NCBI RefSeq assembly: GCF_964213995.1
Contig: NC_135815.1
Coordinates: 78,616,001-78,680,000 of the forward strand
DNA from: Mustelus asterias
Taxonomy: Eukaryota
Reading direction: 5' to 3'
DNA length: 64,000 bases
The notes beneath the pieces are model-generated. The model made no database searches. It saw nothing but the letters and a program-made list of their open reading frames with translations, and was not told where the DNA came from. The position numbers and the translations under genes were made by a program. Numbering within the stretch: the stretch's first letter is position 1; every line of letters begins with the position of its first letter. Of the stretch, positions 8,982-62,900 are shown piece after piece.

Positions 8982-9390
8982 GGGGGACAGCATGGTGGCA
9001 CAGTGGTTAGCACTGTTGCCTTACAGTAAGAAGTTTAACAACACCAGGTTAAAGTCCAACAGGTTTATTTGGTAGCAAAAGCCACACAAGCTTTCGAGGC
9101 TCTGAGCCCCTCCTTACAGTGCCAGGGACCCAGGTTCAATTCCAACCTCAAGTGACTGTGTGGAGTTTGCATGTTCTCCTCATGTCTACATCAGTTTGCT
9201 CTGGATGCTCTGGTTTCCTTTCAAAGATGTGCAGGTTAGGTGGATTAGCAATGCTAAATTGTTGTTTAGTATCAGAGGATTAGCAGAGTAAATGCATGAG
9301 GCTATGGGAATAGGGCCTGGTGGGGTTGTTGTTGGTGTAGGCTCGATGGGCCAAATGGCCTCCTCCTGCTCTGTAGCGGTCCTTTGATTC
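8982..9390 (+). mobile_element. HE1/V-SINE interrupted by a Penelope terminal fragment (about 9026-9110)
   Basis: tRNA head GGTGGCACAGTGGTTAGCACTG and V-domain TGTGGAGTTTGCATGTTCTCC. The insert is flanked by repeated CCTTACAGT. Confidence 0.85.
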
Positions 9391-11287: not shown

Positions 11288-11634
11288 GGGGCGGCACGGT
11301 AGCACAGTGGTTAGCACTGCTGCTTCACAGCTCCAGGGTCCCGGGTTCGATTCCCGGCTCGGGTCACTGTCTGTGTGGAGTTTGCACATTCTCCTCGTGT
11401 CTGCGTGGGTTTCCTCCGGGTGCTCCGGTTTCCTCCCACAGTTCAAAGATGTGCGGGTTAGGTTGATTGGCCAGGTTAAAAATTGTCCCTTAGAGTCCTG
11501 GGATGTGTAGGTTAGAGGGATTAGCGGGTAAATATGTGGGGGTGGGGCCTGGGTGGGATTGTGGTCGGTGCAGACTCGATGGGCCGAATGGCCTCCTTCT
11601 GCACTGTAGGGTTTCTATGGTTCTATGGTTTCTA
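11288..11634 (+). mobile_element. HE1/V-SINE, full length
   Basis: A box GCACAGTGGTTAG, B box GGTTCGATTCCC, V-domain, CR1-like tail GGGCCGAATGGCCTCCTTCTGCACTGT, TTCTATGG repeats. Confidence 0.93.
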
Positions 11635-15189: not shown

Positions 15190-15841
15190 ATCACCTTTGA
15201 AGCAAGACATTAAACCAGGGCCCTATCTCCACTCTTAAGTGGATGTAAGAAAGCCCATAGCATTATTTTGAAGAAGAGCTGGGGGGTTTCCCCCAGTGTC
15301 ATTACCAACATTTTCCTGTCAACTGACAACACTAAAGGATTAACCGGTTATTCACCTCGATGCATTTGCTATGCAATAACTGTTGCACTTTCCTACATGA
15401 TAACAATGATTACATTTCAAAACTGCTTCATATGTTTTAGGACCCCTGAGGTTGCGAAAGGCACTATTTATGTGCAAGTTTGTTTATTTGTTACTATGCA
15501 AATTATGCCAATAGTGGAGTCTAAGGGAAAGATTTTTGTCATGGAGGCAGGAAACCTTCCAACTCGGCAGACCCATCTCCATGGAAATGATGCCCACACA
15601 CACGATTTACGCTCCTGGTGGATAGGGATGGGCGTCAGACCTGCTGCCTCTGAAGGTGGTTCGGAGGTGGTCGGGTGCCATGGCAACTTGCTTAGAAGGC
15701 CTGCCTCAGTTCTCTGAGACTTCAGCCCAGTCTTATAAAAGGGTGTGGAGGCCCCCTAGACCTCACCCTCCACCTCACCCACTCCTATAAGCCCTCATAC
15801 CCACATGCGTATCATGACATCTTTAAACTGTCAATCAAAAC

Positions 15842-16173
15842 ATCGCTTCTCGGCCTTTTGGCTAAGATCAAGTGTAGTATGGATCGCCTGCACTTGGTTG
15901 AGGTCATTAGGTTACGCTGAGGCTTCATATGTTTCATATGAAGCAATTTTTAAAAGCGGCATCTCGGCCTTTTGGCTAAGATGCAAATGAGCTCAAGTCT
16001 TGGAGGAGGATCCTCCCCCTTCTCCAATCAGCTTGACACATGTAGATCAGGCCCAGGACAGGGTGGTTTTGGTCTCCCGTCCTGTCTTGTCAGCCTGGAT
16101 CTGAAATGTCTCAACTTGTTGAGACTCTGAATTGGATTTGATTTGATTGAATTGGAAAAGTATATTTTTAAAA
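15842..16173 (+). mobile_element. U2 snRNA-headed retroposed element (candidate SINEU-like SINE)
   Basis: 15842-15880 is U2 nt 1-39 (ATCGCTTCTCGGCCTTTTGGCTAAGATCAAGTGTAGTAT). A second U2 stem-loop I copy lies at 15962-15982. Short A tail; 17-bp TSD AAACTGTCAATCAAAAC at 15825-15841 and 16174-16190. Confidence 0.85.
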
Positions 16174-17483
16174 AAACTGTCAATCAAAACATGAACTCAA
16201 TCCCCCTGCTGAGGTAAGTGAATTTGGAGCTTTTGAAACTCAAAGCGTTTAAATGGATCAACTGTAATAACACTTCTTGGAAAATGTCAATATTTAAGTG
16301 TATCAGAATTGCAGGAACAGGTAGTATTTTTTAAGCTATATCAATGGCCTGTCAATCAATACACTCCAGCGATGTTTTTTAACTCTGACAGTTACAGCCT
16401 GCTTTCCCCCCACCCCACTTTTGAAGGGCTAGAGATTTAAACAACTTCAGATCATGATACTTAAACAGACATTATCAGCTCTGAAGAGCATTTATGCTTC
16501 CTCCATAAATTAGTGACTCCAATACTGCCCTTGGAACAATGAAAATGGGGTCTAGTTGAACTCAGCACAAATTTCAAATAGCCTTGCTGAGTTTGTGTTT
16601 CCCACCTGTATAGTCCACATGCTGTCCCTTCCTCCGCTAACAAAAATAGGATATGCCAGAAATGGGGCGGCACAGCCCACCATCTTCAAAGGCCTCCAGA
16701 GTCAACTCGACTCTGAAAACCTGGCCCTAAATGTACTTTGTAGGGACATTGAGAAACAATAGAAGTGTTAATAGCAGGCTAATGCTACAGACGAGAGGCT
16801 AATGTATAGAATTCAGAGGTTTGTGACATTTCATGTTCTTTTAAAAAGCATTATCAGGGACATAGACAAGCGGTTTGTTTGCTCATTCTCTGTCTGGGAA
16901 TGGTTTAACATAAATGGGGAACTAAGAAAGAAGAAATTGTATGTTGTTTAAAAAGTACATTAAGCAATCAATAAGTAGTGTGGAGTACTTGAGGAACCAT
17001 TACTGTTTTAGGAAGGAAATAAATATGGAAAACCATAGCCTTATTTTCAATCTGTGCAAAAGACATGGGGAGGGTGTGATTTTCTGCCCCAGTTTCAGCA
17101 ATCAGGAAAGCTGGAGGGGGCAGAGAATCCAACGGAAGTCCCAAAATGTCTTTTATGGCAGTAGGATTTCCTGCTGTGATTGTCCCTGCCCCCTGCCAAT
17201 GACATTGTGCCGGGGGCAGGGGTGTACTCTGGGGACACTCCTATGTTCTTTGGGAGAGTTTCTGGAAGGTTCTGTGTCCACGGGGGGAGGGTTCTGTCCC
17301 TGTGCTGGGGGGTGGGGGGAGGTCAGTTTTTTTGTTTTTACAAAACCCTAATCTGTTAGAAACTAAGGTTGCCAGCGGGGCAGGCTCATTCAAAGCGCCC
17401 TACCAGCATAACTTCACGGGACCCGCTCTTCCATTTTTTGTCTCTAAGTGTTCACAGCTGATGGACTGCTCTCTACTTTTTCC

Positions 17484-19689
17484 CAGTAAGAAGTCTCACA
17501 CCAGGTTAAAGTCCAACAGGTTTATTTGGCAGCACTAGCTTTCGGAGCCTCAAGCGCCTTCTTCAGGTGAGTGAGGACTTGTGTTCATAAACAGGGCATA
17601 TAAAGACACAAATTCAATTTACAAGATAATGGTTGGAATGCGAGTCTTTACAGGTAATCAAGTCTTAAAGGTACAGACAATGTGAGTGGAGTGAGGGTTA
17701 AGCACAGGTTAAAGAGATGTGTTTTGTCTCCAGCCAGGACAGTTAGTGAGATTTTGCAAGCCCAGGCAAGTCGTGGGGGTAGACATAGTGTGACATGAAC
17801 CCAAGATCCTGGTTGAGGCCGTCCTCATGTGTGTGGAACTTGGCTATTAGTTTCTGCTCAGCGATTCTGCGTTGTCGTGTGTCGTGAAGGCCGCCTTGGA
17901 GAACGCTTACCCGAAGATCAGAGGCTGAATGCCCGTGACTGCTGAAGTGTTCCCCGACTGGAAGGGAACACTCCTGCCTGGTGATTGTTTTTTTCTGATT
18001 CTGAATACAGTCACATTGTCTGATTCTCAAAGGGGTGATTGTTGAGCAGTGCTCATTCATTCGTTGTCGTAGCATCTACATGGTCTCCCCAATGTACCAT
18101 GCCTCGGGACATCCTTTCCTGCAGCGTATCAGGTAGACAACGTTGGCCGAGTGCAAGAGTATGTACCGTGTATCTGGTGGATGGTGTTCTCATGTGAGAT
18201 GATGGCATCCGTGTCGATGATCCGGCACGTCTTGCAGAGGTTGCTGTGGCAGGGTTGTGTGATGTCGTGGTCACTGTTCTCCTGAAGGCTGGGTAGTTTG
18301 CTGCGGACAATGGTCTGTTTGAGGTTGTGTGGTTGTTTGAAGGCAAGAAGTGAGGGTGTGGGAATGGCCTTGGCGAGATGTTCGTCTTCATCGATGACAT
18401 GTTGAAGGCTCCAAAGAAGATGTCGTAGCTTCTCCGCTCCGGGGAAGTACTGGATGACGAAGGGTACTCTGTCCACCGTGTCCTGTGTTTGTCTTCTGAG
18501 GAGGTTGGTGCAGTTTTTCACTGTGGCACGTCGGAACTGTCGATCGAAGAGTTGAACGCCATATCCTGTTCTTATGAGGGCATCTTTCAGCGTCTGTAGG
18601 TGTCTGTTGAAATCCTCCTCATCTGAGCAGATCCTGTGTATATGGAGGGCTTGTCCGTAGGGGATGGCTTCTTTGACGTGTTTAGGGTGGAAGCTGGAGA
18701 AGTGAGGTTATCCGTGGGCTTGCGGTAAAGTGAAGTGCTGAGGTGACCGTCCTTGATGGAGATGCGTGTGTCCAAGAATGCAACCAATTCTGGAGAGTAG
18801 TCCATGCTGAGTCTGATGGTGGCATGGAACTTGTTGATGTCATCATATAGTTGTTTCAATGATTGTTCGCCATGAGTCCAAAGGCAGAAAATGTTATTGA
18901 TGTATCTAGTGTATAGCATCGGTTGAAGGTCCTGTGCAGTGAAGAGGTCTTGTTCGAACCTGTGCATAAAGATGTTGGCATTTTGAGGTGCGAATTTGGT
19001 CCTCATGGCTGCTCCGTGTGTCTGGATGAAGAACTGGTTGTTGAAGGTGAAGACGTTGTGGTCCAAGATGAAGCAGATGAGTTGTAGAATTGCATCTGGA
19101 GATTGGCAGTTGTCGGTGTTGAGTACTGAGGCAGTTGCAGCAATGCCGTCGTCATGGGGGATGCTGGTGTAGAGTGCTGAGACATCCATTGTGACGAGGA
19201 GTGCTCCTGGTTCAACTGCTCCATTTCTGTAGGAAGTCCGTAGTGTCATGACAAAAGCTGGGGGTTCTTTGTACAGTGAAACTGATAGCCAAGTTTCGCA
19301 CACATGAGGACGGCCTCAACCGGGATCTTGGGTTCATGTCACACTATCTGTAACCCCCACGACTTGTCTGGGCTTGCAAAATCTCATTAACTGTCCTGGC
19401 TGGAGACAATACACACCTCTTTAACTTGTGCTTGGCCCTCTCTCCACTCACATTCTTTGTACTTTTAAGACTTGATTACCTGTAAAGACTCACATTCCAA
19501 CCATTATTTTGTAAATTGAGTTTGTGTCTTTATATGACCTGTTTGTGAACACAAGTCCTCACTCACCTGAAGGAGGAGCTTGAGTCTTCGAAAGTTTGTG
19601 CTACCAAATAAACCTGTTGGACTTTAACCTGGTGTTGTGAGACTTCTTACTGTGTTTACCCCAGTCCAACAACGGCATCTCCACATCAT
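17484..19689 (-). mobile_element. Penelope-like element (RT plus GIY-YIG), 5'-truncated, with an inverted second terminal repeat
   Basis: RT motifs TMDVSALYTSIPHDDG and RYINNIF (decayed YIDD); GIY-YIG YLIRCRKGCPEAWYIGET. Inverted copy at about 19278-19689. 13-bp TSD CTCTACTTTTTCC at 17471-17483 and 19690-19702. Confidence 0.92.
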
Positions 19690-20500: not shown

Positions 20501-20514
20501 TAATTACTCAAATT

Positions 20515-20866
20515 GTGGCACAATAGCACAGTGGTTATCACTACTGCCTAACAGTGCCAGGGACCTGGGTTTGATTCCAGCCTTGGGTGACTGTCTGTGT
20601 GGAGTTTGTATGTTCTCCCCGTGTCATCATGGGTTTCCTCTGGGTGCTCCAGTTTCCTCCGACAGTCCAAGTTTAGGTGGATTGGCCATATTAAATTGCC
20701 CTTTGGCGTCCAAAGATGTGTAGGTTGGGGGGATTAGCAGGGTAGATGCACAGGGTTACGGAGACAGGGTGGGTGTTGGGCCTGGGTAAGATGCTCTGTT
20801 GAAGAGTCTGTGCAGACTCAATAGGCTGAATGGCCTCCTCCTGGACTGTAGGGATTCTATAATTCT
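20515..20866 (+). mobile_element. HE1/V-SINE
   Basis: Same head, V-domain and tail as the copy at 11288. Confidence 0.85.
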
Positions 20867-24208: not shown

Positions 24209-25482
24209 TTTCTCTTTTATAATTTCTAGCTTGTTAAAAATTCTCATCCCTGTTTTCAAATCATTCCATGGCCATGCCCTTTCCTATTCCTGTAACCTCC
24301 ACCAGCTTTAAAATCCTTTGAGATACTGCACTCGTTCAATGTGAACAATTTGCACATCCCCAATTTAAAAATAAAATGTTTTTATTGAAGATTTTCCATT
24401 TTACCAAATGATGCCATGATGCCACAAACCCCCAAAACCCAGTACAGCGCAGAATAATCATCATTCCGCATGTACATTCAGAAGACACTGGCAAATGACG
24501 TAACAATTGATTCGGATTATCAATTACAATTTGTTATAATCAGCGCCTCCCTTCGCATGGATGATGCAAAAAGTGGGGGATATCAGCATAACAGGATAAA
24601 GCCATGGGAATATGGCACAATGGTGCACATTCACCCTCAGGATAACATGGATCAAGCTATCTAGCATAAGGGAGACCCAGGGTGTCAAATACAATCAATT
24701 GGAGCCTAAAACAGTACCTCAAAACCTCTGAAAGGATACCCCAGAAACAGGGGGACATCAGGATACAACCCAGACCCAAGATGTGGCGTGACAGTGTACA
24801 TTCTCTCACACAGGATAACAGGAGCAGAGCTACACAGCCTCGCCGGAAGAGTGCGGATAAAACAGTGCCTAGGTATCTAAACTCATCCTCAGGCCCCACA
24901 GATAACAGGATACCTTCCACTAGGAGTATAATTTCCACACCTCCCAAATACAAAATTTCCTTGCCTACACAGCCTGAGAAAGAATGCACTATTTAGACAA
25001 ATAGAAGGACAGCCCATAAGCCAAAGATTCTAACACCATGCTTGGGCTCACAAACAAACAAGTCTCATTCATCCCCAGCCACACTGGAGGTGCTGCTCAA
25101 GCCCCACCATCAGCTAAAGAATTTAACCCATTTTCTACCAAGGAGATCCCACCAACTGGAAGTAGGAGAATTGCCAAGACACCCACAAACGTGATATCTT
25201 CTTTCACTCCAGAGAGTGTAGCATAGTATCTGGGCTGACTTTGTAGTACTGGCGGAGGACTGCGCTGTCAGTGATGCCTTCTTTTGGATGAGATGTTCAC
25301 CTGAGACCTGTCTGTCCTTTTGGGTGGGCAATGAAGATCCCACAGTGCTCTCTGGTGTCCTGGTCAATATTTATCCTTCAACAAGCATCACTAAAAACAG
25401 ATTATCTGCTTATTAGCACATTGCTGTTTGTAGGACCTTGCTTTGTGCAAAATGGCTGTTGCATTTCCTACATTACAACAGT

Positions 25483-26265
25483 GATCTGAAGTAGATCAGT
25501 TCCACTTACCCGCCTGACCCCTATAACCCCTAATTCCCTTACCGATCAGGAATCCATCTATCCGTGATTTAAACATATTCAACGAGGTAGCCTCCACCAC
25601 TTCAGTGGGCAGAGAATTCCAGAGATTCACCGCCCTCTGAGAGAAGAAGTTCCTCCTCAACTCTGTCCTAAACTGACCCCCCTTTATTTTGAGGGCCTCT
25701 AGTTCTAGCTTCTTTTCTAAGTGGAAAGAATCTCTCCACCTCTACCCTATCCAGCCCCTTCAATATCTTATAGGTCTCTATAAGATCCCCCCTCAGCCTT
25801 CTAAATTCCAACGAGTACAAACCCAATCTGCTCAGTCTCTCCTCATAATCAACACCCCTCATCTCTGGTATCACCCTGGTGAACCTTCTCTGCACTCCCT
25901 CCAAGGCCAATATATCCTTCCGCAAATAAGGGGACCAATACTGCACACAGTATTCCAGCTGCGGCCTCACCAATGCCCTGTACAGATGCAGCAAGACACC
26001 TCTGCTTTTATATTCTATCCCCCTTGCGATATAGGCCAACATCCCATTTGCCTTCTTGATCACCTGTTGCACCTGCAGACTGGGTTTTTGCGTCTCATGC
26101 ACAAGGACCCCCAGGTCCCTTTGCACAGTAGCATGTTGTAATTTTTTTCCATTTAGATAATAATCCAATTTGCTATTATTTCCTCCAAAGTGAATAACCT
26201 CGCCTTTGTCAATGTTATACTCCATCTGCCAGATCCTCGCCCACTCACTCAGCCTGTCCAAATGT
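25483..26265 (-). mobile_element. CR1 3' part, young family
   Basis: ORF 25668..26261: LSEWARIWQMEYNIDK...LVRPQLEYCVQYWSP...LRGDLIETYKIL. Confidence 0.95.
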
Positions 26266-32469: not shown

Positions 32470-33760
32470 GTACATACAAACATGCAAATTAGGAGTAGGC
32501 CATTTGGCCCCTTGAGCCTGCTCCGCCATTCAGTAAGACCATGGTTGATCTGATTGTAACCTCAACTCCACATTCTCATTAACCCCCAATTACCTTTCGC
32601 CCCCTTGCTAATCAAGAATAAATTTACCTCCTACCTTAAAAATATTCAAAGATTCTGCTTTACTGCCTTTTGAAAAAGAGTGTTTCAAAGACTCATGACC
32701 CTCATCCCTGTCTTAAATGCATGATTCCTTGGCTAAGATTCTCCCGTCCTGCTGCAGGGAATGGAGATGTGGCTAAGTGCCAAATTCTCTGTCCTCTCTG
32801 GCAATGGCGGTGAGGCATGAACGGCCAGAGAATTCCAATCCTTATTTTTAAACAGTAACCCCTAGCTCTAGATTCTCCCACAAGAGGAAATATCCTCTCC
32901 AATCCACCCTGTCTAGACCCCTCAGGATCTTGTATGTTTCAATCAATTTACTCTTCTAAACTCCAATGGATACAAGCCTAGCCTGTCCAACCTTTCCACA
33001 TAAGACAACCCACCCATTCCAGGTATTAGTCTAGTGAACCTTCTCTGAACTGCTTCCAATGCATTTACATCCTTCCTTAAATAAAGGAGACTAATACTGT
33101 GCACAGCACTTGAGCTGTGATCTCACCAATGGCCTGTACAACCAAAGCATAACCTCCTTACTTTTGTGTTCAATGCCCCTCGCAATAAATGATAATATTC
33201 TATTGGCTTTCCTGCTGTACTTGCATACTAGCCGATTCATGCACCAGAACATCCAGATCCCTCTGCATCTCAGAGGTTTGCAATCTAAATTGTATGCTTT
33301 TTTATTTATCCTGCCAAGATGGACAGTTTCCTACAATATACTCCATTTACCAGATCTTTTCTCACTCACTTAACTTGTCTATATCCCTTGGTAACCTCCT
33401 TATGTCTTCTTCACAACTTACTTTCGTACCTATGAAATGTACCATTCTCCTCGTGTCTGCGTGGGTTTCCTCCGGGTGCTCCAGTTTCCTCCCACAGTCA
33501 AAAGATGTGCGGGTTAGGTTGATTGGCCATGCTAAAATTGCCCTTAGAGTCCTGGGATGCGTAGGCTAGAGGGATTAGTGGGTAAATATGTAGGGATATG
33601 GGCGTAGGGCCTGGGTGGGATTGTGGTCGGTGCGGACTCGATGGGCCGAATGGCCTCCTTCTGCACTGTAGGGTTTCTATGATTTCTTTCTATGATTTCT
33701 ATCTTTGTGTCATCAGCAAACTGAGCAATCAAACTTTCAACCCCTTTATCCAAGTCATTT
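32470..33760 (-). mobile_element. CR1 3' part with a nested MITE (about 32735-32835) and a partial HE1 SINE (33446-33700, +)
   Basis: IAQFADDTKI motif, RIFPLVGESRARG and CR1 tail; SINE V-domain and tail lie inside. Confidence 0.85.
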
Positions 33761-37585: not shown

Positions 37586-38371
37586 ATCGTTAGTACATCA
37601 TTGCACTTCCAAAACCCAAACGCACAGCCTCAGAATGGGAGAGAGACTGGGGAAAAATTGCACAAAACAGTCGATTAAATGGTGGGATGAGACTTCCACC
37701 CAACTGATAACATGAACATCTGATCATATTTTTCCTGGGGTCGGGAAAATTGTTCTCACTGTGTATGCAGGGCACAATCTCCGTGACAATCCTGATCCTG
37801 GTCAGGTTTCTAACAGGCTGTTGGAGGGGAAATTGGGCAATCTGTTGCAGCTAAAAGTCTGCAGCAGCAGAATTGGGCACAAGCGTAGCATGTCAGTCAG
37901 AAAGAGGAGAGAGGGAAAGTTGGAGCACTAGAATACTGATTAGTAATGGCAAGAGGACCAAGACTTAAGGATTGTCAGATGATGCTAGCAGTAATAAGGG
38001 TCAGAAGACACAGCCATTTGGCATCCAGGGAGTTTTGTCCCAGGAAAGGATGCAGCATGGAGGAAGGTCGTACTGTACTGGGAGATGGAAAATCTGGGGA
38101 AGAGCTGTCAGAGGCAGATGGACAATGGACGAAGAGAGAACTTGCGTGCACAGATATAAATGTTTGTTACCTGCTAACAGTGTGATGCAAAGCCTTGTTG
38201 TTATTGTTCAGTTAAGCTTTTCTGATTCACAAGTTAGAAGCAACATCCCAGGATGAATGCCATCTTGTGTCCCTCTCAGAAGTTGAAATAAGGATCTGGT
38301 GAGCAGTGTAGCACTTGTTGGGGACTCCTTTCCCCACTCCAACATTGCAGCTTAACTACTCAAGCACAAGT

Positions 38372-38678
38372 CCGGCACGGTGGCACAGTGGTTAGCACTG
38401 CTGCCTCACAGCCAGGGATCCGAGTTCAATTCCCGGCTTGGGTCACTGTCTGTGTGGAGTTTGCACATTCTCCCTGTGTCTGCGTGGGTTTCCTCTGGGT
38501 GCTCCGGTTTCCCCCCCACAGTCCAAAGATGTGCAGGTTAGGTGGATTGGTCATGATAAATTCTCCCTCAGTGTACCCGAACAGGTGCTGGACTGTGGCG
38601 ACGAGGGGATTTTCATAGTCACTTCATTGCAGTGTGAATATAAGCCTATTTGTGACTAATAAATAAACTTAAACTTAA
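38372..38678 (+). mobile_element. V-SINE with a different 3' tail
   Basis: HE1-like head and V-domain, but the tail is GTGGCGACGAGGGGATTTTC...AATAAATAAACTTAAACTT. Confidence 0.8.
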
Positions 38679-43000: not shown

Positions 43001-43926
43001 CCAGCCAAATATACATAATGAGGATTGTACCAGACACATATTAAGCTTGTTGGCTGCAGTCACTGGCTTGGTGCCTCACTATGTGCAGTTCCTGCCTATA
43101 TGCTATCCTCTAAAATAAAGGCAGTGTCAGTACCTGAGTTGGTGGCTGTGAGTGTGAGATCGAGTAACGCTGTTTCTTCATTCAGCATGTTGAAATAGCC
43201 GTGCCCCAGAGAAAACATTGATTGAATGACAATTCAAGCTATGATCTCTGCTGTCAATTTCACATGTTTGTTTACACAACATTAAGCGCTTTCAAGCATT
43301 TGTGGTTTTTGTTATTGATGCTTTAAAGGATCTGGATGATTAACATTTTTATTAACTTGTAGTGAAATGACTTTTTTTAGTCATGAATGAATTACCATTT
43401 TCAAAGCTTTTATGTTTACCTGTTCCACTGTCTCAACAGGGTTCATTAATTCTAGACAATGTTTTGTGGCTTAATGGGCATGTAAGTGCCATAGCTTGAC
43501 ATGGAGTGCATGAAGGGCCATGAGTGATGGGTGGAATAGCAGAGCTTGGCATGAGGGACCAGAAGGGATAGGTGGGGGCATCAGGTGGTTTGGAGGGTGA
43601 GGGGGTTTGAGGGGTAAGGGCTGGAGGGTCTTTGCGTTTTTATTTTAACTAGGACAATTGCACCAAGGCGGGCCTTTTAAACGGCCTGCCTCCATACCTG
43701 GCAGCCTCTGCGGATGCCTCCAAACGTCTCCTTGGGTCGGCTGGCTTAACTCCAGCCCACACCCACCCCCGGCAATGAAGATCCTGCCTTTGCAAGCTCT
43801 TTCTCCTGGGGCAGGTGAGACAAACTGGGAATTTTTGCAACTCCCGCTACCTGCTTCAAGGATGAAAATCCAGGCCAATGTTTCTTTACTCTGCACGATG
43901 CACAGGCCAAGACTGAGCTGGAGTTC

Positions 43927-44271
43927 ATAGAATCATAGAAACACTACAGTGCAGAAAGAGGCCATTTGGCCCATTGAGTCTGCACCAACCACAATCCCAC
44001 CCAGGCCCTACCCCCGTATCCCTACATATTTACCTGCTAATCCCTCTAACCTACGCATCTCAGGACACTAAGGGGCAATTTTTAGCATGGCCAATCAACC
44101 TAGCCCGCACATCTTTGGACTGTGGGAGGAAACCGGAGCACCCGGAGGAAACCCACGCAGACATGGGGAGAATGTGCAAACTCCACACAGACAGTGACCC
44201 AAGCCAGGAATCGAACCCAGGTCATTGGAGCTGTGAAGCAGCAGTGCTAAACACTGTGCTACCGTGCTGCC
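43927..44271 (-). mobile_element. HE1/V-SINE, full length
   Basis: Highly similar to the reverse complement of 11288-11634. Confidence 0.92.
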
Positions 44272-44759
44272 CATTTTCCATTCTCCGTGGCAGTGCCAGC
44301 ATGTGTTCTGGCAGGCCTACCAATCCACCAATCATTTCTATGCACATTGCCCATTTAAATCCCCATCTGAATTCTCTGCAAAAGAGTTTGTTTATGACCT
44401 CCTCCTGGCTGCAGTCACTTGCTTGTTGCCTCATTATGTGCAGTTCCTGTCTGTATGCTACCCTTTAAAAAAGGGCAATGCCAGTATCTGTGTTGGTGGC
44501 TGTGAGTATGAGATCGAGTAACACTGTTTCTTCATCATCAGTGTCCTGCTCCTCTTGGCCTTCACGCTCCCACGTCACTGCTTGGCCAAATGGTATTTTT
44601 GGGTATCTAAAAGAAGAAAGGCACATCTGTAGCATTGTGCTGAATGGAGAGAGAAATGTAAAATGTTCATGTTGACCACATTTGCAGCTTGTGTATCAGC
44701 AGAGATTGTGGGATGAGGGTGAAGTTGAATGTGAGAAGATGGGTTAGGTAGAAACATAC

Positions 44760-45656: not shown

Positions 45657-45994
45657 ATCATAGAATCCCTACAGTGCAGAAGCAGGTCATTCGGCCCATC
45701 GGGTCTGCACCAACTCATCAACAGAGCACCTTATCCAGGCCCTATCCCTCTAACCACACATATTTAACCCACTAATCCCTCTAACCTACACATCTTGGGA
45801 CACTAAGGGGCAATTTACCATGGCCAATCCACCTAACCCACACATCTTTGGAGTGTGGGAGGAATCTGGAGCACCTGGAGGAAACCCACACAGACACAGG
45901 TAGAATGTGCAAACTCTGCACAGTCACCGGAGGCCAGAATTGAACCAGGGTTCCTGGTGCTGTGCGGCAGCAGTGCTAACCCACTGTGCCACCA
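45657..45994 (-). mobile_element. HE1/V-SINE
   Basis: Head, V-domain and tail on the minus strand. Confidence 0.88.
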
Positions 45995-49375: not shown

Positions 49376-50134
49376 AACACTAGTGCACTCCCTATGTTAT
49401 GCAGTGTGTGCCGGCATTGTCACATTATTAAATATGTGAGTTAATCTCTCGGTGCAGCATGAGGTCATCCCACGACACTAGCAATATACACTCAACAGAG
49501 CAATTGGACAGCAACCTCACACCTACAACACATTGTTAACTCCATTATTTGATCAGGGATACAACAGGAGATAATCAAAGTATTCTCGTTAATATTTTGT
49601 TGTTTTATTTGTTTCATTAAAGTAAACATTTTAGAACTATCCAATTGAATGTTTTAGTGTAAGCTAAACAGAATGTGCATAATATGGATTCTTTGAAAGA
49701 AGATTGTATTTATACCTGTAGCAGGGGATACGGAAACCCCTGCTTTCTGAGAGCATTAAAACAAAGTAGATTAGTTAAAAAAAAGGGACCACAGTGTGCC
49801 TTAACTACATCAAAAGGTATCACAATGTGCCTCACTTATATATTATACAAAGGTATTGTCTGTATAAGCACATATATAACCATTTTTGAACACGCATTAT
49901 AGATTTAAACTGTATTTTTGTATTTTCTTGTGAGCTTTGGCCAACAAGCAATTTACCCCTTGGCATAATGGGAAATAGGTTTGATTAGACAGACCGCATT
50001 CTTTTGGAACAAAGAAGTATAAAGCATATACCCTGGGGTATATGCTTTATATAAGGGGCAGGCCAGGCAGATACAAGCTATCAAGGTTTTTGAAATGAAT
50101 AGAAAGATTTAACTTCTAGCTGCAATGAATATGA

Positions 50135-50505
50135 AGGAACTGGATAGGGTAGAGATGGAGAGATTCTTTCCACTTAGAAAGGAAACTAGAACTAGAGGGC
50201 ACAGCCTCAAAATAAAGGGGGGTCAGTTTAGGACAGAGTTGAGGAGGAACTTCTTCTCTCAGAGGGTGGTGAATCTCTGGAATTCTCTGCCCACTGAAGT
50301 GGTGGAGGCTACCTCGTTGAATATGTTTAAATCACGGATAGATGGATTCCTGATCGGTAAGGGAATTAGGGGTTATAGGGATCAGGCGGGTAAGTGGAAC
50401 TGATCTACTTCAGATCAGCCATGATCTTATTGAATGGCGGGGCAGGCGCGAGGGCTACATGGTCTACTACTGCTCCTATTTCTTATGTTATGTTCTTATG
50501 TTCTA
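50135..50505 (+). mobile_element. CR1 3' end, young family
   Basis: ERFFPLRKETRTRGHSLKIKGGQFRTELRRNFF; nearly identical to the reverse complement of 25490-25750. Confidence 0.93.
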
Positions 50506-54344: not shown

Positions 54345-55255
54345 CCCACGGCCCGGAATGCAGCCCCCATGGACCAGACCTATCGCGGGCCCGCCGCTCC
54401 CCCCCCCCCCCCCCCCCACCCCCCCACCGATCACATGCAGAGTGGCAGCAGGCCCCCCTCCCTCCCCCACCGATCGCATGCAGAATGGCAGCAGGCCCCC
54501 CCTCCCTTCCCTCCCCCCCCCACCGATCACATGCAGAATGGCAGCAGGCCCCCCTCCCTCCCCCACCGATCGCATGCAGTGGGCCCCCTCCCCCCATTGG
54601 TCCTGTCCCCTGGCCCACCCCCATTGGCTTTGCCCCTGGCCCATGCCCCATTGGCCCCACCCCCTGGCACTGCCACCACAGGCCCCATCCCCCATTGGCT
54701 CTGCCCCGGCACTGTCCCCCACAGACCCTGCCCCCATTGGCCCCACCCCTGGCACTGCCCCCACAGGCCACACCCTTCATTTGTCACACCTCCTTGGCAC
54801 TGCCCAGTGGGCATTGCCAAGGTGCCAGGCTGGCACTGCTAGGGTGGCACTGCCAGTCTGGCCCTGCCCAAGGGGCACCCCCACTTTGCACTCAGCCTCC
54901 CTGGGGAGCCTCAATGGCCTCCGGTTCCACCGGCAATGCTAACACAACTGTTCCCCATTATGGGGAGCAGGTGTTTTCCTCGCCGGAGAGAACCTCTCCT
55001 GGCGAGGTCACAAAGGCAAGCAGGCCCAGACGATTGAGCGCCGGGCTCATTAAACACATTGAAATGTATAAGTTAAATAAATTAACCAGCCTCTCGCCCA
55101 TTTCCGGCGAGAGGCTGACCGCACCAGAAATCCGGGTGTTGTAAAATCGCAACAGGTGCGATAACTGCCGCCATTTTCTCCAGCCGCTTTGTGCCCGATT
55201 TTATGACATTTTTCCGCTGCAAAATGGGCGTAAAGTGGCCGAAAAATTCCACTCC
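54345..55255. mobile_element. GC-rich non-autonomous element with internal tandem repeats
   Basis: About 4 copies of a 43-52 bp unit CCCCACCGATC(A/G)CATGCAG...GGCAGCAGGCCCCC at 54420-54590; shares motifs with 14104-15189. Confidence 0.6.
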
Positions 55256-59445: not shown

Positions 59446-59687
59446 AACTAGTACCTGTAATAATGATCATGAAACTACTGGATTGTCATGCAAAGCCATC
59501 TTGTTCACTGATAATTAGTCTTTAAGGAAGCAAATCTGCAGAGTCGTACCTGGTCTGGCCTATATATGACTCCAGACCCACACCAATGCGGTTGACTTTC
59601 TCTAAAATGACCTAACAAGCCACTCAGTTCTAGGCAGCTGATCACCATCTGCGAAAGAGCATTATGGACGGGCAATAAATGCTGGAC

Positions 59688-59955
59688 TGGGTGGCACGGT
59701 GGTTAGTACTGCTGCCTCACAGCTCCAGGGACCCAAGTTCAATTCCAGCCTTGGGTTACTGTGTGTCTGGAGTTTGCATGTTCTCCCCATGTCTGCGTGG
59801 TGATTGGTCATGCTAAATTGCCCCTTAATGTTCCAAAATATATAGGTTGGGGGATTAGCAGGGTAAATATGTGGGGTTACAGGGGAAACCTGATTACGGG
59901 TCGGTGCAGATTCGATGAGGTGAATGGCTTCCTGCTGCCCTGTAGGAATTCTATG
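59688..59955 (+). mobile_element. HE1/V-SINE with internal deletion
   Basis: Head, partial V-domain and tail. Confidence 0.8.
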
Positions 59956-62900
59956 AATGTCTGCATCCTAAGAACGAACATAAAATCGTATCAAATTATA
60001 AGTTTAGCATTGTTAAACTTAGATTAACATATCAACCATCAGCTTTTCAATCCATTGCATCAGTTTGTTAATGTTTTACAAGAGAAATAGTTACTTTTTT
60101 AAACTGGCATTGAAAGTTGTCAACATCAAATAATCATTTATTTTGAGATAAAAAGAGAAAATGCAGGAGATACTCAGCGGGTCTACATCTTTGTAAGTGA
60201 AACAGAGTTAATTGGGGCAATTCTCTGGCCCTGCGCACCCTGGCACAAGGGATGGGGCCTGAAGGGTGTTCCTGAAGGGAGCATGGCTTTAGGCAACCCC
60301 ATAGAGGAGCGTTGCGCACTTGGTGGGGGGTGCCTGAGGCCTTGTGTCGATGAGGATGGATGGGGGTGTGCCAGGTCACCCTCATGTCTGCATGGGGGGA
60401 TGGGTGATCTGGACATTTAGTGACGGAGTAGAGGTTGGTCCTCTGGGGTGAAGGGTTGGGGGTGTTCCCATGTTGGAGGTGTGTTGCAATGTCTGTGGGA
60501 GGGGCAGGGGGACCTTCAACTTAACTGTGAGATTTAAAAGCAGTATCCCAATCTCTGAAGAGGCGGATTTACCGGCTTCCTTTGGTCCAGCACATCTCAT
60601 TGCTGGCAGGAAGCTCCCCAATCTCCAAAAAAATGACTTAAGTGTGGGTGGATTGCGATGTGGATTGGGCTGAACCACTTGGCAGAATTCTCACTGCTCT
60701 TCACGCCGGAGATGACACTTAGGGGGGGGATTCATCGACCCTGTTCACCACCAGCGGGAATCCCAATGGCCTGCTGAATAGGGCATTGGGGCTAAAATGG
60801 GATTCTCATTTACCCGGCCCGCCCCACTGGCCACGATTGGGTTCTTACCGGGTAATTATGCAAAACCCCCCATGCACCCACATCCTCAGCTGGAAGTCAC
60901 GTGTGTTCGATTTGGTGATGTTCTTGAAAAGTGGGGCCCTGGGGCAATGAAATTCAAGGGGGAGCAAGGAGGTAAGTGGCCATTGTTAAATTTATCTGTG
61001 TTGCATCGGGAGTTGAGCGTCTTAACTGGGGAAAGTGAGGGTCAAGCAGTAGGGAAGGTGACCTCGGGGTCCCCCTGGAACACGGGTGCCTTGGCTAACC
61101 AGCTTCCTTGTGCGTTTAAACATTAGCAACTAACTCTCACCACGTTAGTTTCAGGCACCTGACTGTTAAAAGTGTCTATTCCCCTTTGCGTCCTATAACA
61201 GCTCTGAAGATTCTGCTCAGTGCTAATCCATGCACTATGCCCATCTGGACCCCTGCATACTTCTTCCAATCTGGCCTAGCCCTGAGTTTATTAAATGACC
61301 GCCAGCTGTCGCCAGCCCTCCCAGAACTCCTCTCTCTCACAGGATATGTTAGTGCACCAAGAGCTCTCTGCCTTGTAAGCCTGAATGAGCACAAGCTGTT
61401 GTTCAGCTTGTTAAAGTGAGAGTTCATGGAGTTCCCTTCATTCACAGTCCCACAGCAGATGAGGGAAAGGAAATCGCTGAAGTTAGTGCATACAAGGATC
61501 AGATGCTCCAGTAGCAAGTGAAAGATGTGCTGGCAGCAGCCCACATCACATCAAAAGCTGCACTGACAAGACATTCATTGAACACTCCATGAAGGCTGCT
61601 GCTCTCTGTCCCTGCCCCACATCTGTTCTCTCTGGTCTCATCCTTATCCCTCTGGATAACATGAATACACTGGAAAGCTTGCAGGAGATCATAAGTGCCT
61701 TTTGACAAGACTCTCACCTTAGCCAGTGGCTATATCACTCAGTGATGCCAAGGTTCCAGCAAAGGCACATCTCTCACTGACCAAATCCTTAGTCTGTGGC
61801 ACCACTTCAACTTCTTCAGAAAGATGCTTGCCTTCACACAATTAACATCCTGACCACACAAACAGCTGCCACAGCTCAGGCAAGAAGCCACAAGGGGCCC
61901 TCATTGAGGAGAGGCCCACTTGCACTCTCTGGGAAACCCAGAGGAACGGCCACAGCGCACTTTACTAACACCCAGTGTAGCACCCACAGGCTCCTTATGT
62001 GTGAAGGAGGGATTGTGACTGCAGCATTTCAAACCAAGGAGTCGCCGGCAACTCCCTGAAGGCTACCGGGGTGTAGTGTCAACTGTGGTTCCTGAAAGGG
62101 GCTGGGGCTTTGTGGGGTGGCGGGCGATGTACTGTCAATCGAATGTTGTGTGGCAGGTCATATTGTGTCTTCCCAGCTCTTTGGAATCTGCCGACCTGCC
62201 AGGAAGAAGGTGATGTGATGCTCACTTAGGAGGTTCCACCAGGCATCCTTCCTTGCCTGAGACACCAAGAGGTGCCCTCTCTCATCCATGCTAGTCCTGG
62301 TCCTCCTACCAAGTTCCTCAGCATCGATAAATCAGCTATCCCCCATGGACTAAACTTTATCAAGTCTTAGGGAAAGAAGCAGTCACAGGCAGGGACATGA
62401 GGCTCACAAGCATGGGACCACCGAGTGGCCTCCACTGTCACCACATCATGATGCGCTCCATAACTGATGAGGTGAAGGGAGGGATGATGCGGACAGGAGG
62501 CCATGTGGCAAGATGAGGAGATATGGGGCAGTGTCTGTGACCATGCAAGCTATCTGGTGTGGGCAGCAGCTGCTGTAAAGCAGCTGGGTAGCAGAAATGC
62601 TGAGGGTTGGTCAGCCTTTAACAATTTGATCACAATCAGGATTAGAGGGGAGGTTACAGTGAAAGGATGGATTATATTGCTCACTATCTCTCTCTCATTT
62701 TTCCACATCCTCACAGATTGAAGATGAATACTGGTTTGGAGCCAGGCCAGCTTGTATTATTGCTGCTGATAGGTATCAAGGTACGTAGGAGGTGGTGAGA
62801 GTGCCAGGGCAAGCCCAGGCTTGACCCAGAAACCACAGGAACCAGCCATCAGGGTACTGCCACAGAGGCTCAGGTGCTGGCCGTCCATCAGGCTGAGGTG

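Follow-up and report, generated by a model that had tools for sequence, protein, structure and literature searches.

What kind of RNA lies behind the U2-headed, densely folded element at positions 15842-16173 of the window, by which we mean the whole 64,000-nt stretch of Mustelus asterias DNA analysed here? The first-pass annotation read its intact stems as the mark of a selected structured RNA, possibly an undescribed U2-like snRNA variant, and proposed folding against shuffles, covariation and comparison with Rfam as checks. We found that the element is a retroposon (SINE) copy belonging to a dispersed family and not an snRNA gene. The idea of a selected structured RNA survives at the level of source elements, while that of a U2-like snRNA variant gives way to A-tailed copies flanked by target-site duplications (TSDs) and numbering in the thousands.

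Anatomy of the window copy and its relation to U2

The element is non-coding, about 330 nt long, and ends near 16173 in a T run and A tail (Table 1). It is a passive insertion without U2 upstream DNA: the DNA preceding it shows no relation to the flanks of U2 or U1, and its tail runs directly into a TSD. The 3' flank (16173-16300) matches many contigs of one public sequencing run, which differ from it at ~10-13 of every 70 bases; the copy may thus have landed in an old repeat. Among the collected SINE and LINE loci the flank matches only itself.

Table 1. Features of the U2-headed SINE copy, in window positions
Feature	Positions	Strand	Remarks
Left TSD	15825..15841	+	17 nt; 19 nt with first two head bases; exact repeat 15825-15843 / 16174-16192
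Whole U2-headed SINE copy, youngest subfamily	15842..16173	+	best 40 genomic places 99-100% identical
Head, U2 snRNA nt 1-39; predicted 5' strand of foldback hairpin	15842..15880	+	
Head/body junction, loop of foldback hairpin; varies between subfamilies	15881..15887	+	junction types per subfamily
Foldback strand, predicted partner of U2 nt 8-36	15888..15921	+	centroid helices; head foldback in 6/6 subfamily folds
Perfect 10-bp hairpin	15922..15944	+	5 bp in old subfamilies, longer in younger
Unpaired T/A ('Sm-like') tract	15945..15956	+	pairing probability <=0.04; without G of RAU3-6GR
Second U2 nt 7-27 copy (stem-loop I) with extra closing pairs	15959..15984	+	Rfam U2 model positions 7-26, 19.5 bits
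Hairpin module 2, 20 bp	15987..16041	+	homologous to module 3 (old-subfamily copy, 0/1000 shuffles as good)
Hairpin module 3, 23 bp	16043..16103	+	sole clear A-U / G-U / G-C series
Terminal 7-bp hairpin	16108..16125	+	5-6 bp in old subfamilies
3' tail: short GATTT-type repeats, AAAGTAT motif, T run, A tail	16126..16173	+	
Right TSD	16174..16190	+	repeats 15825-15841

The structural landmarks of the first-pass annotation all lie where it had placed them. The hairpin it called perfect (15922-15944) is so over 10 bp, and the T/A tract it put about 104 nt from the 5' end, AATTTTTAA, begins at 15945, nt 104 of the element. Its second copy of stem-loop I (15962-15982) indeed repeats nt 7-27 of the same genome's U2 gene and is re-closed within a helix of 15959-15969 with 15974-15984. 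Among its further stems, that at 16000-16027 (16000-16009/16018-16027) sits inside a longer 20-bp helix spanning 15987-16041, that at 16043-16103 pairs 16043-16066 with 16077-16103 over 23 bp, and that at 16108-16125 pairs 16108-16114 with 16119-16125. To these we add a long foldback helix, 15849-15877 with 15888-15921, which is predicted to sequester the U2 head. Modules 2 and 3 represent an old duplication. A dimeric origin of the T/A tract, as the former tail of a left monomer, was considered by comparing the left and right ends of a young copy, for which 495 of 1000 shuffles were as good. The element also contains internal T4 and T5 runs.

Scanning the window with Rfam gave a sole match at cut-off, to U2 (RF00004; 49.3 bits, cut-off 46), exact only over nt 1-39, where the head is 100% identical to the genome's U2 genes. 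The true U2 genes score 178-190 bits (48 scored) and stand in tandem arrays on contig C24; the element lacks their stem-loops II-IV, and the nt 7-27 repeat is the only U2 sequence detectable downstream of its head. When the body was compared with U2 nt 40-191 (stem-loops II-IV), 412, 109 and 106 of 1000 shuffles did as well, and comparison with U1 revealed no significant similarity; we rejected both as sources of the body. No family came near cut-off in an Rfam scan of the body, and no ribozyme matched. We likewise rejected a classic Pol III SINE, given the U2 head and the lack of a tRNA, 5S or 7SL match in Rfam.

The T/A tract is unpaired and lies between hairpins in all subfamilies, a position that fits an Sm site, and the first-pass annotation had called it Sm-like. 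By sequence the tract departs from an Sm site, although it may still bind Sm proteins: the consensus stated in the accessible text of PMC2582628 is RAU3-6GR, and the tract fails it because the G is missing. It ends in AA rather than GR, its T run varies from 5 to 8 among copies, and the genome's U1 and U2 carry the consensus G. Within the head, both stem-loop I and the bases that pair with the branch point are predicted to be occluded. The modelled probability of pairing within the head is 0.0, head nt 8-36 pairing instead with 15888-15921, and forcing stem-loop I together with free nt 33-38 carries a predicted cost of 14.8 kcal/mol. Searching after young-type tails, with the young-tail pattern only, gave 0 matches to a 3'-box-like motif. 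A comparison of proximal sequence elements (PSEs) detected no shared motif even between the genome's own U1 and U2. A U2 or Sm-class snRNA gene was rejected on these grounds: there are no stem-loops II-IV, no consensus Sm site and no 3'-box-like motif after any young-type tail, and the head is predicted to be occluded. Copies of this family nevertheless exceed the Rfam U2 cut-off and would be mis-annotated as U2 genes.

The window holds other repeats as well. An abundant SINE that combines a tRNA-like head with a LINE-type tail, and is presumably akin to shark HE1-type SINEs, occurs at 8984-9389, 11288-11622, 20512-20864, 33443-33684, 38369-38562 and 59680-59958, with inverted copies near 43926-44272 and 45657-45926. 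Two long inverted pairs, 17498-17780 with 19353-19635 (92% complementary) and 25482-25762 with 50132-50417 (99%), are likely recent copies of other repeats, and C-rich tandem repeats with units of ~27 and 43-53 nt occupy 54380-54780.

Family history and probable selection on the fold

Exact matches to a 21-nt motif of the body number 5,487 in the genome (control 0), a lower bound on copy number because the window copy itself is one base off the motif. A 39-mer of the youngest subfamily has 116 exact matches, and a genome search returned 2,292 candidates, of which 40 were scored, all 99-100% identical. Among 30 young copies, 14 are flanked by a TSD of at least 12 nt, 4 by a shorter repeat and 12 by none; of 133 distinct copies, 69 lie between repeats of at least 10 nt. 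The flanks are unrelated, with no dominant family (the largest flank cluster comprises 11 of 83 loci), and a second SINE copy lies within 120 nt at 11 of 83 loci. At scattered sites, 43 TSDs display only a weak A-rich preference, and we rejected a U2-like sequence preference there. Some loci (L075, L087, L090, L111) hold a SINE inverted relative to a neighbouring SINE or LINE at common insertion hot spots.

Clustering divided the copies into six groups of 51, 8, 4, 3, 33 and 28, with 6 left over. Subfamilies share diagnostic changes, which points to propagation from source copies, and their succession is roughly ladder-like. In the young group of 51, U2 nt 1 is the first base of 22 copies and nt 2 that of a further 7; the young copies use several junction types and vary in T-run length. 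Contigs of public runs, which speak to the presence of 15990-16300 and not to ends, strand or level, matched this segment in three of four runs compared, from three different organisms (914, 75, 1 and 0 contigs). The window stretch or part of it was matched in 20 of 24 listed runs (12 studies); no matching run was listed as RNA, though the one with 75 contigs is possibly such a run.

The folding check bore out the first-pass expectation. Positions 15842-16130 have a minimum free energy of -124.1 kcal/mol, against a shuffle mean of -86.1 (s.d. 5.0), giving a z-score of -7.57 with 0 of 200 shuffles as good; without its head, the body still reaches -5.1. Controls with 30 shuffles each scored -1.5 and +0.2 for the flanks, +0.9 for a tRNA-type SINE of the window and -3.3 for a true U2 gene. 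Consensuses of the six subfamilies, 72-93% identical in their bodies, fold into the same series of hairpins (z -5.5 to -12.2), with 82 pairs in at least four of the six folds and 70 in all six. In each of them the head is predicted to be buried in the foldback hairpin, and two hairpins are longer in the younger groups.

Substitution patterns suggest that this fold is likely to have been selected in source copies, since the changes that define subfamilies keep pairs far more often than private ones do. The 26 consensus changes in stems comprise 16 that keep a pair, 2 that break one, 6 that create one and 2 in gap columns, whereas singletons keep or break pairs at 47:111 (Fisher p 1.5e-6); the 16:2 ratio is inflated, as the pairs were themselves taken from these consensuses, and each reversal counts double. 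Circularity is lower for changes common to at least three copies within groups, which keep or break pairs at 18:9 versus 47:111 for singletons (p 4e-4). Consensus substitutions number 26 in 142 paired columns against 75 in 90 unpaired ones, the loop counts being inflated by uncertain alignment. Private mutations are about even (1.11 per paired versus 1.36 per unpaired column; four groups, 120 copies), and inserted copies likely decay freely. Two-sided covariation is slight, at 2 of 49 pairs (term -0.86; 14-copy alignment); one of the two is a clear series, columns 141/186 of module 3 with AU in 7 copies, GU in 2 and GC in 5. The covariation score was 0.085 versus 0.072; in a control that takes no account of kinship, 3 of 500 shuffles reached it.

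If it is selected, the hairpin series likely serves RNA stability or handling by the LINE proteins. More tentatively, and with somewhat less than even confidence, we suggest that the foldback has been kept because it holds the head out of splicing.

The probable partner LINE and the U2 loci

From a zf-RVT profile search of the genome, in which 150 of 1,389 candidates were scored, twelve loci with long frames (one picked for its adjoining SINE) proved to belong to a single LINE family whose members are 94-99% identical along most of the element. Its ORF2 of ~1,144 aa contains APE, RT and zf-RVT domains (PF03372, PF14529, PF00078, PF13966), and its ORF1 contains ZCCHC3-type RNA-binding domains and zf-CCHC. 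One ORF1, at L108:6128-7186 on the minus strand, matches both ZCCHC3 RNA-binding domain models and ZCCHC3-named Atlas clusters; our literature search found no paper joining ZCCHC3 with Tx1 retrotransposons. Full-length LINE copies start with a U2 head of their own, running from nt 4-9 to nt 33-35. Within U2 clusters on C24 and C21 the LINE A tail runs into U2 nt 38, and LINE copies sit in U2 genes before nt 38/39 at L107, L113, L205 and L206, with many others scattered.

This LINE very probably supplies the endonuclease and reverse transcriptase that mobilise the SINE. Six SINE tails found with the exact young-tail pattern run straight into U2 from nt 40 onward (control 0), as does that of an old-subfamily copy (L213), and TSDs at U2 insertions are 15-21 nt long and end at nt 53-58. 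A same-strand SINE lies within 60 nt after 3 of 25 LINE 3' ends picked regardless of SINEs (chance ~2e-4), and after 4 of 12 LINE ends in the chosen loci. Both elements have mixed A/T tails. The likeness between SINE and LINE tails is weak, with 11 of 1000 shuffles as good for the window copy and 7 of 500 for the oldest consensus; it fell below 10 of 500 in 2 of 16 comparisons, most other pairs being not significant.

Locus L107 (G000:C24:44814000-44823999), with an 8,035-bp repeat continuing to ~44.94 Mb, is a U2 array; each of its units contains one intact U2 gene together with a Keno-like LINE lodged in a 5'-truncated U2. In L107, ORF2 is broken into frames of 577 and 515 aa, the second of which recurs in 15 C24 array units. 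L113 and L205-L207 (G000:C21:28.04-28.08 Mb) hold a minor U2 variant, ~89% identical to major U2, in units of ~449 bp heavily interrupted by LINE and SINE. By eye this variant has a 3'-box-like motif, while the motif comparison showed no PSE for it; an exact 36-mer of the variant occurs only 7 times in the genome. Older LINE 3' ends at L211, L212 and L214, 70-88% identical to the young family, adjoin U2 nt 38-40 or intact U2, which suggests that earlier Keno-like LINE families existed.

Several junctions suggest that the SINE borrows U2 promoters: copies lie behind U2 upstream DNA, and scattered copies carry it. At L209, a SINE head directly follows 400 nt that are 99% identical to the major U2 upstream region, at array spacing. 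SINE heads also adjoin upstream DNA of the variant U2 in 6 of 21 pattern matches (the other 15 being chance; control 3) and at L113; four of these seven cases have 240-260 nt of upstream DNA, the other three 93, 32 and <10 nt. The SINE heads join the U2 upstream DNA seamlessly, as do full-length LINEs at L206 and L207. Upstream spacer of U2 is present in L129, L135, L143 and L185, and two of these, L129 and L185, are scattered and TSD-flanked.

In a further 19 copies, the head is preceded by U2 sequence reaching nt 52-57 (control 0; matches had to extend to nt 52 and could extend beyond). They look like transcripts of a SINE-bearing U2 gene, since these ends match those of the TSDs at U2 insertions. 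Their junctions are mostly different; by script, 11 have a TSD, and in 1 the tail is followed by U2. Source copies in present-day U2 genes are scarce in an assembly whose U2 arrays may be collapsed: a search with the exact young-tail pattern placed only 6 of at least 5,487 copies at the U2 site, and of the 116 places of the youngest subfamily, the 100 listed all lie outside the C24 and C21 U2 clusters. Behind the major U2 promoter, our search yielded no intact source copy; its single match, L209, has lost ~40 nt of body. A youngest-type copy that does follow variant-U2 upstream DNA, on C14, has private changes. Judged from these junctions, we lean slightly towards transcription of the SINE from U2 loci, through the promoter or by array read-through, as the supply of new copies and the means by which the head stays matched to U2.

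Competing explanations and known elements

The explanation that we consider probable as a whole is a young SINE copy with a Keno-like LINE partner, source transcription in U2 genes and a predicted hidden head. The LINE would cut U2 genes before nt 38 and copy SINE RNA into them, often with a seamless 5' join through homology of the head. Once lodged there, the SINE would be transcribed from the U2 promoter or by array read-through, and RNA from the U2 locus would give rise to new copies whose head stays U2-matched while the body drifts. In the source RNA, the foldback would hide the U2 head from splicing. A bolder version, which we regard as doubtful, is that the family is a parasitic snRNA: a U2-promoter transcript running into U2's Sm site and 3' box would mature like an snRNP, with the foldback avoiding the spliceosome. 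Such an RNA would gain a TMG cap and an Sm ring, and with them stability and nuclear entry, and each re-entry into a U2 gene via Keno would found a new subfamily.

The same SINE and LINE could instead operate with transcription from flanking promoters, the head being renewed by template jumping onto U2 snRNA and insertion into U2 being a by-product. Kojima 2015 argued for this account in crocodilian SINEU-2 (PMC4494074, as far as its accessible text goes), and R2 is described as jumping onto U12 snRNA and tRNA in the available part of PMC3414825. The mostly distinct junctions of the 19 U2 extensions are as template jumping predicts, L005 bears an extra head of nt 1-39, and the major U2 gene yielded no intact source copy. 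We nonetheless think this account unlikely. Jumping onto mature U2 fails for L129, L135, L143 and L185, because their upstream spacer is not part of U2 RNA; the extensions stop at nt 52-57 though the pattern permitted longer ones; and full-length LINEs lie seamlessly behind U2 upstream DNA, while scattered LINEs carry the same kind of head.

Transcription in U2 genes must also be weighed against two readings that dispense with a U2-targeted SINE. Retrocopying of a single host gene, one encoding a U2-like or Sm-class variant that works as a structured RNA, would agree with the strong conserved folding, with a U tract that stays unpaired between two hairpins in every subfamily and with the roughly ladder-like series. 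Such a gene is very unlikely to be the source, given the absent Sm G and variable T run, the lack of U2 stem-loops II-IV, a head whose release from predicted occlusion would take 14.8 kcal/mol, the 0 young tails with a 3'-box-like motif and the want of any Rfam family fitting the body. The body, moreover, drifts by 28% within one genome, and young copies have several junction types. Independent U2/LINE chimeric processed pseudogenes, with hairpins as unselected leftovers of foldback and duplication, are scarcely credible, as the same body and the same head boundary recur in thousands of copies. It is true that modules 2 and 3 are duplicated, that the head has a foldback partner and that inverted duplications fold well without selection, as the z-score of -4.3 for the element's reverse complement illustrates. 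Yet common changes within subfamilies keep pairs far more often than singletons do, consensus changes avoid paired columns while singletons are about even, and hairpins grow longer in younger subfamilies.

Set beside published systems, the element is a SINEU-type retroposon, a variant apart from the crocodilian SINEU described so far, and is likened to it by description and not by body sequence. Like SINEU it has a U2 head, is shorter than 500 nt, non-coding and multicopy, carries a poly(A) tail and TSDs, propagates from source copies and shares its target with a LINE. The accessible text of PMC4494074 describes for SINEU-1, -2 and -3 a U2-derived head, an internal repeat of a U2 piece, poly(A), TSDs and internal oligo-T, as well as tandem copies sandwiching a TSD, repeated 5' additions of snRNA sequence, and a Keno-related partner of the Tx1 group deduced from common targets; in all of these our family is alike. 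Its host is Mustelus asterias rather than crocodilians, and it targets U2 genes and scattered sites where SINEU targets Mariner-N4. Unlike SINEU, it contains no U1 sequence, and its body is not an internally deleted U2. It is also predicted to have a conserved fold and a masked head, neither of which is described for SINEU in that text, and differs further in the traces that suggest transcription at U2 loci.

By its domains and U2 site, the partner LINE appears Keno-like. Keno belongs to the Tx1 clade, has an APE endonuclease and is U2-specific (PMC4494074, PMC4640811, both in their accessible portions); Utopia is placed at U2 nt 39 in the latter, with an identical 3' flank for Keno. Our LINE resembles Keno in its APE domain, in U2 from nt 38 directly 3' of it and in TSDs of 15-21 nt at U2, and differs in being widely scattered and in having a U2 head at its 5' end. 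As with the R2/R1 SIDEs outlined in the available part of PMC3414825, the SINE is non-autonomous, inserts in a multicopy RNA gene and, if U2 loci do transcribe it, would be made as a gene co-transcript. SIDEs are LINE deletion derivatives with a 5' ribozyme and are confined to rDNA, unlike the present element, which has no clear LINE-derived body and no Rfam ribozyme match and is found genome-wide.

In a literature search covering SINEU, shark SINEs, snRNA and Tx1, the Keno promoter and shark U2, with Repbase, Dfam and most subscription papers outside its scope, the family was undescribed; the accessible text of PMC5381603 and PMC7245038 cites snRNA heads only via Kojima 2015. SINEU was not found outside crocodilians according to the consulted portion of PMC4494074, and as far as our searches show, snRNA-headed SINEs extend beyond them. 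The same source reports no promoter for SINEU and treats its transcription as an open question, since snRNA promoters lie outside the transcribed region. The Mustelus family is young, lies in U2 genes at the Keno site and has scattered copies with U2 upstream DNA, so that promoter borrowing by targeted re-entry offers a testable answer. In addition, RNA structure appears to be under selection in the source copies of this SINE, and part of that structure is a foldback that would mask a spliceosomal sequence.
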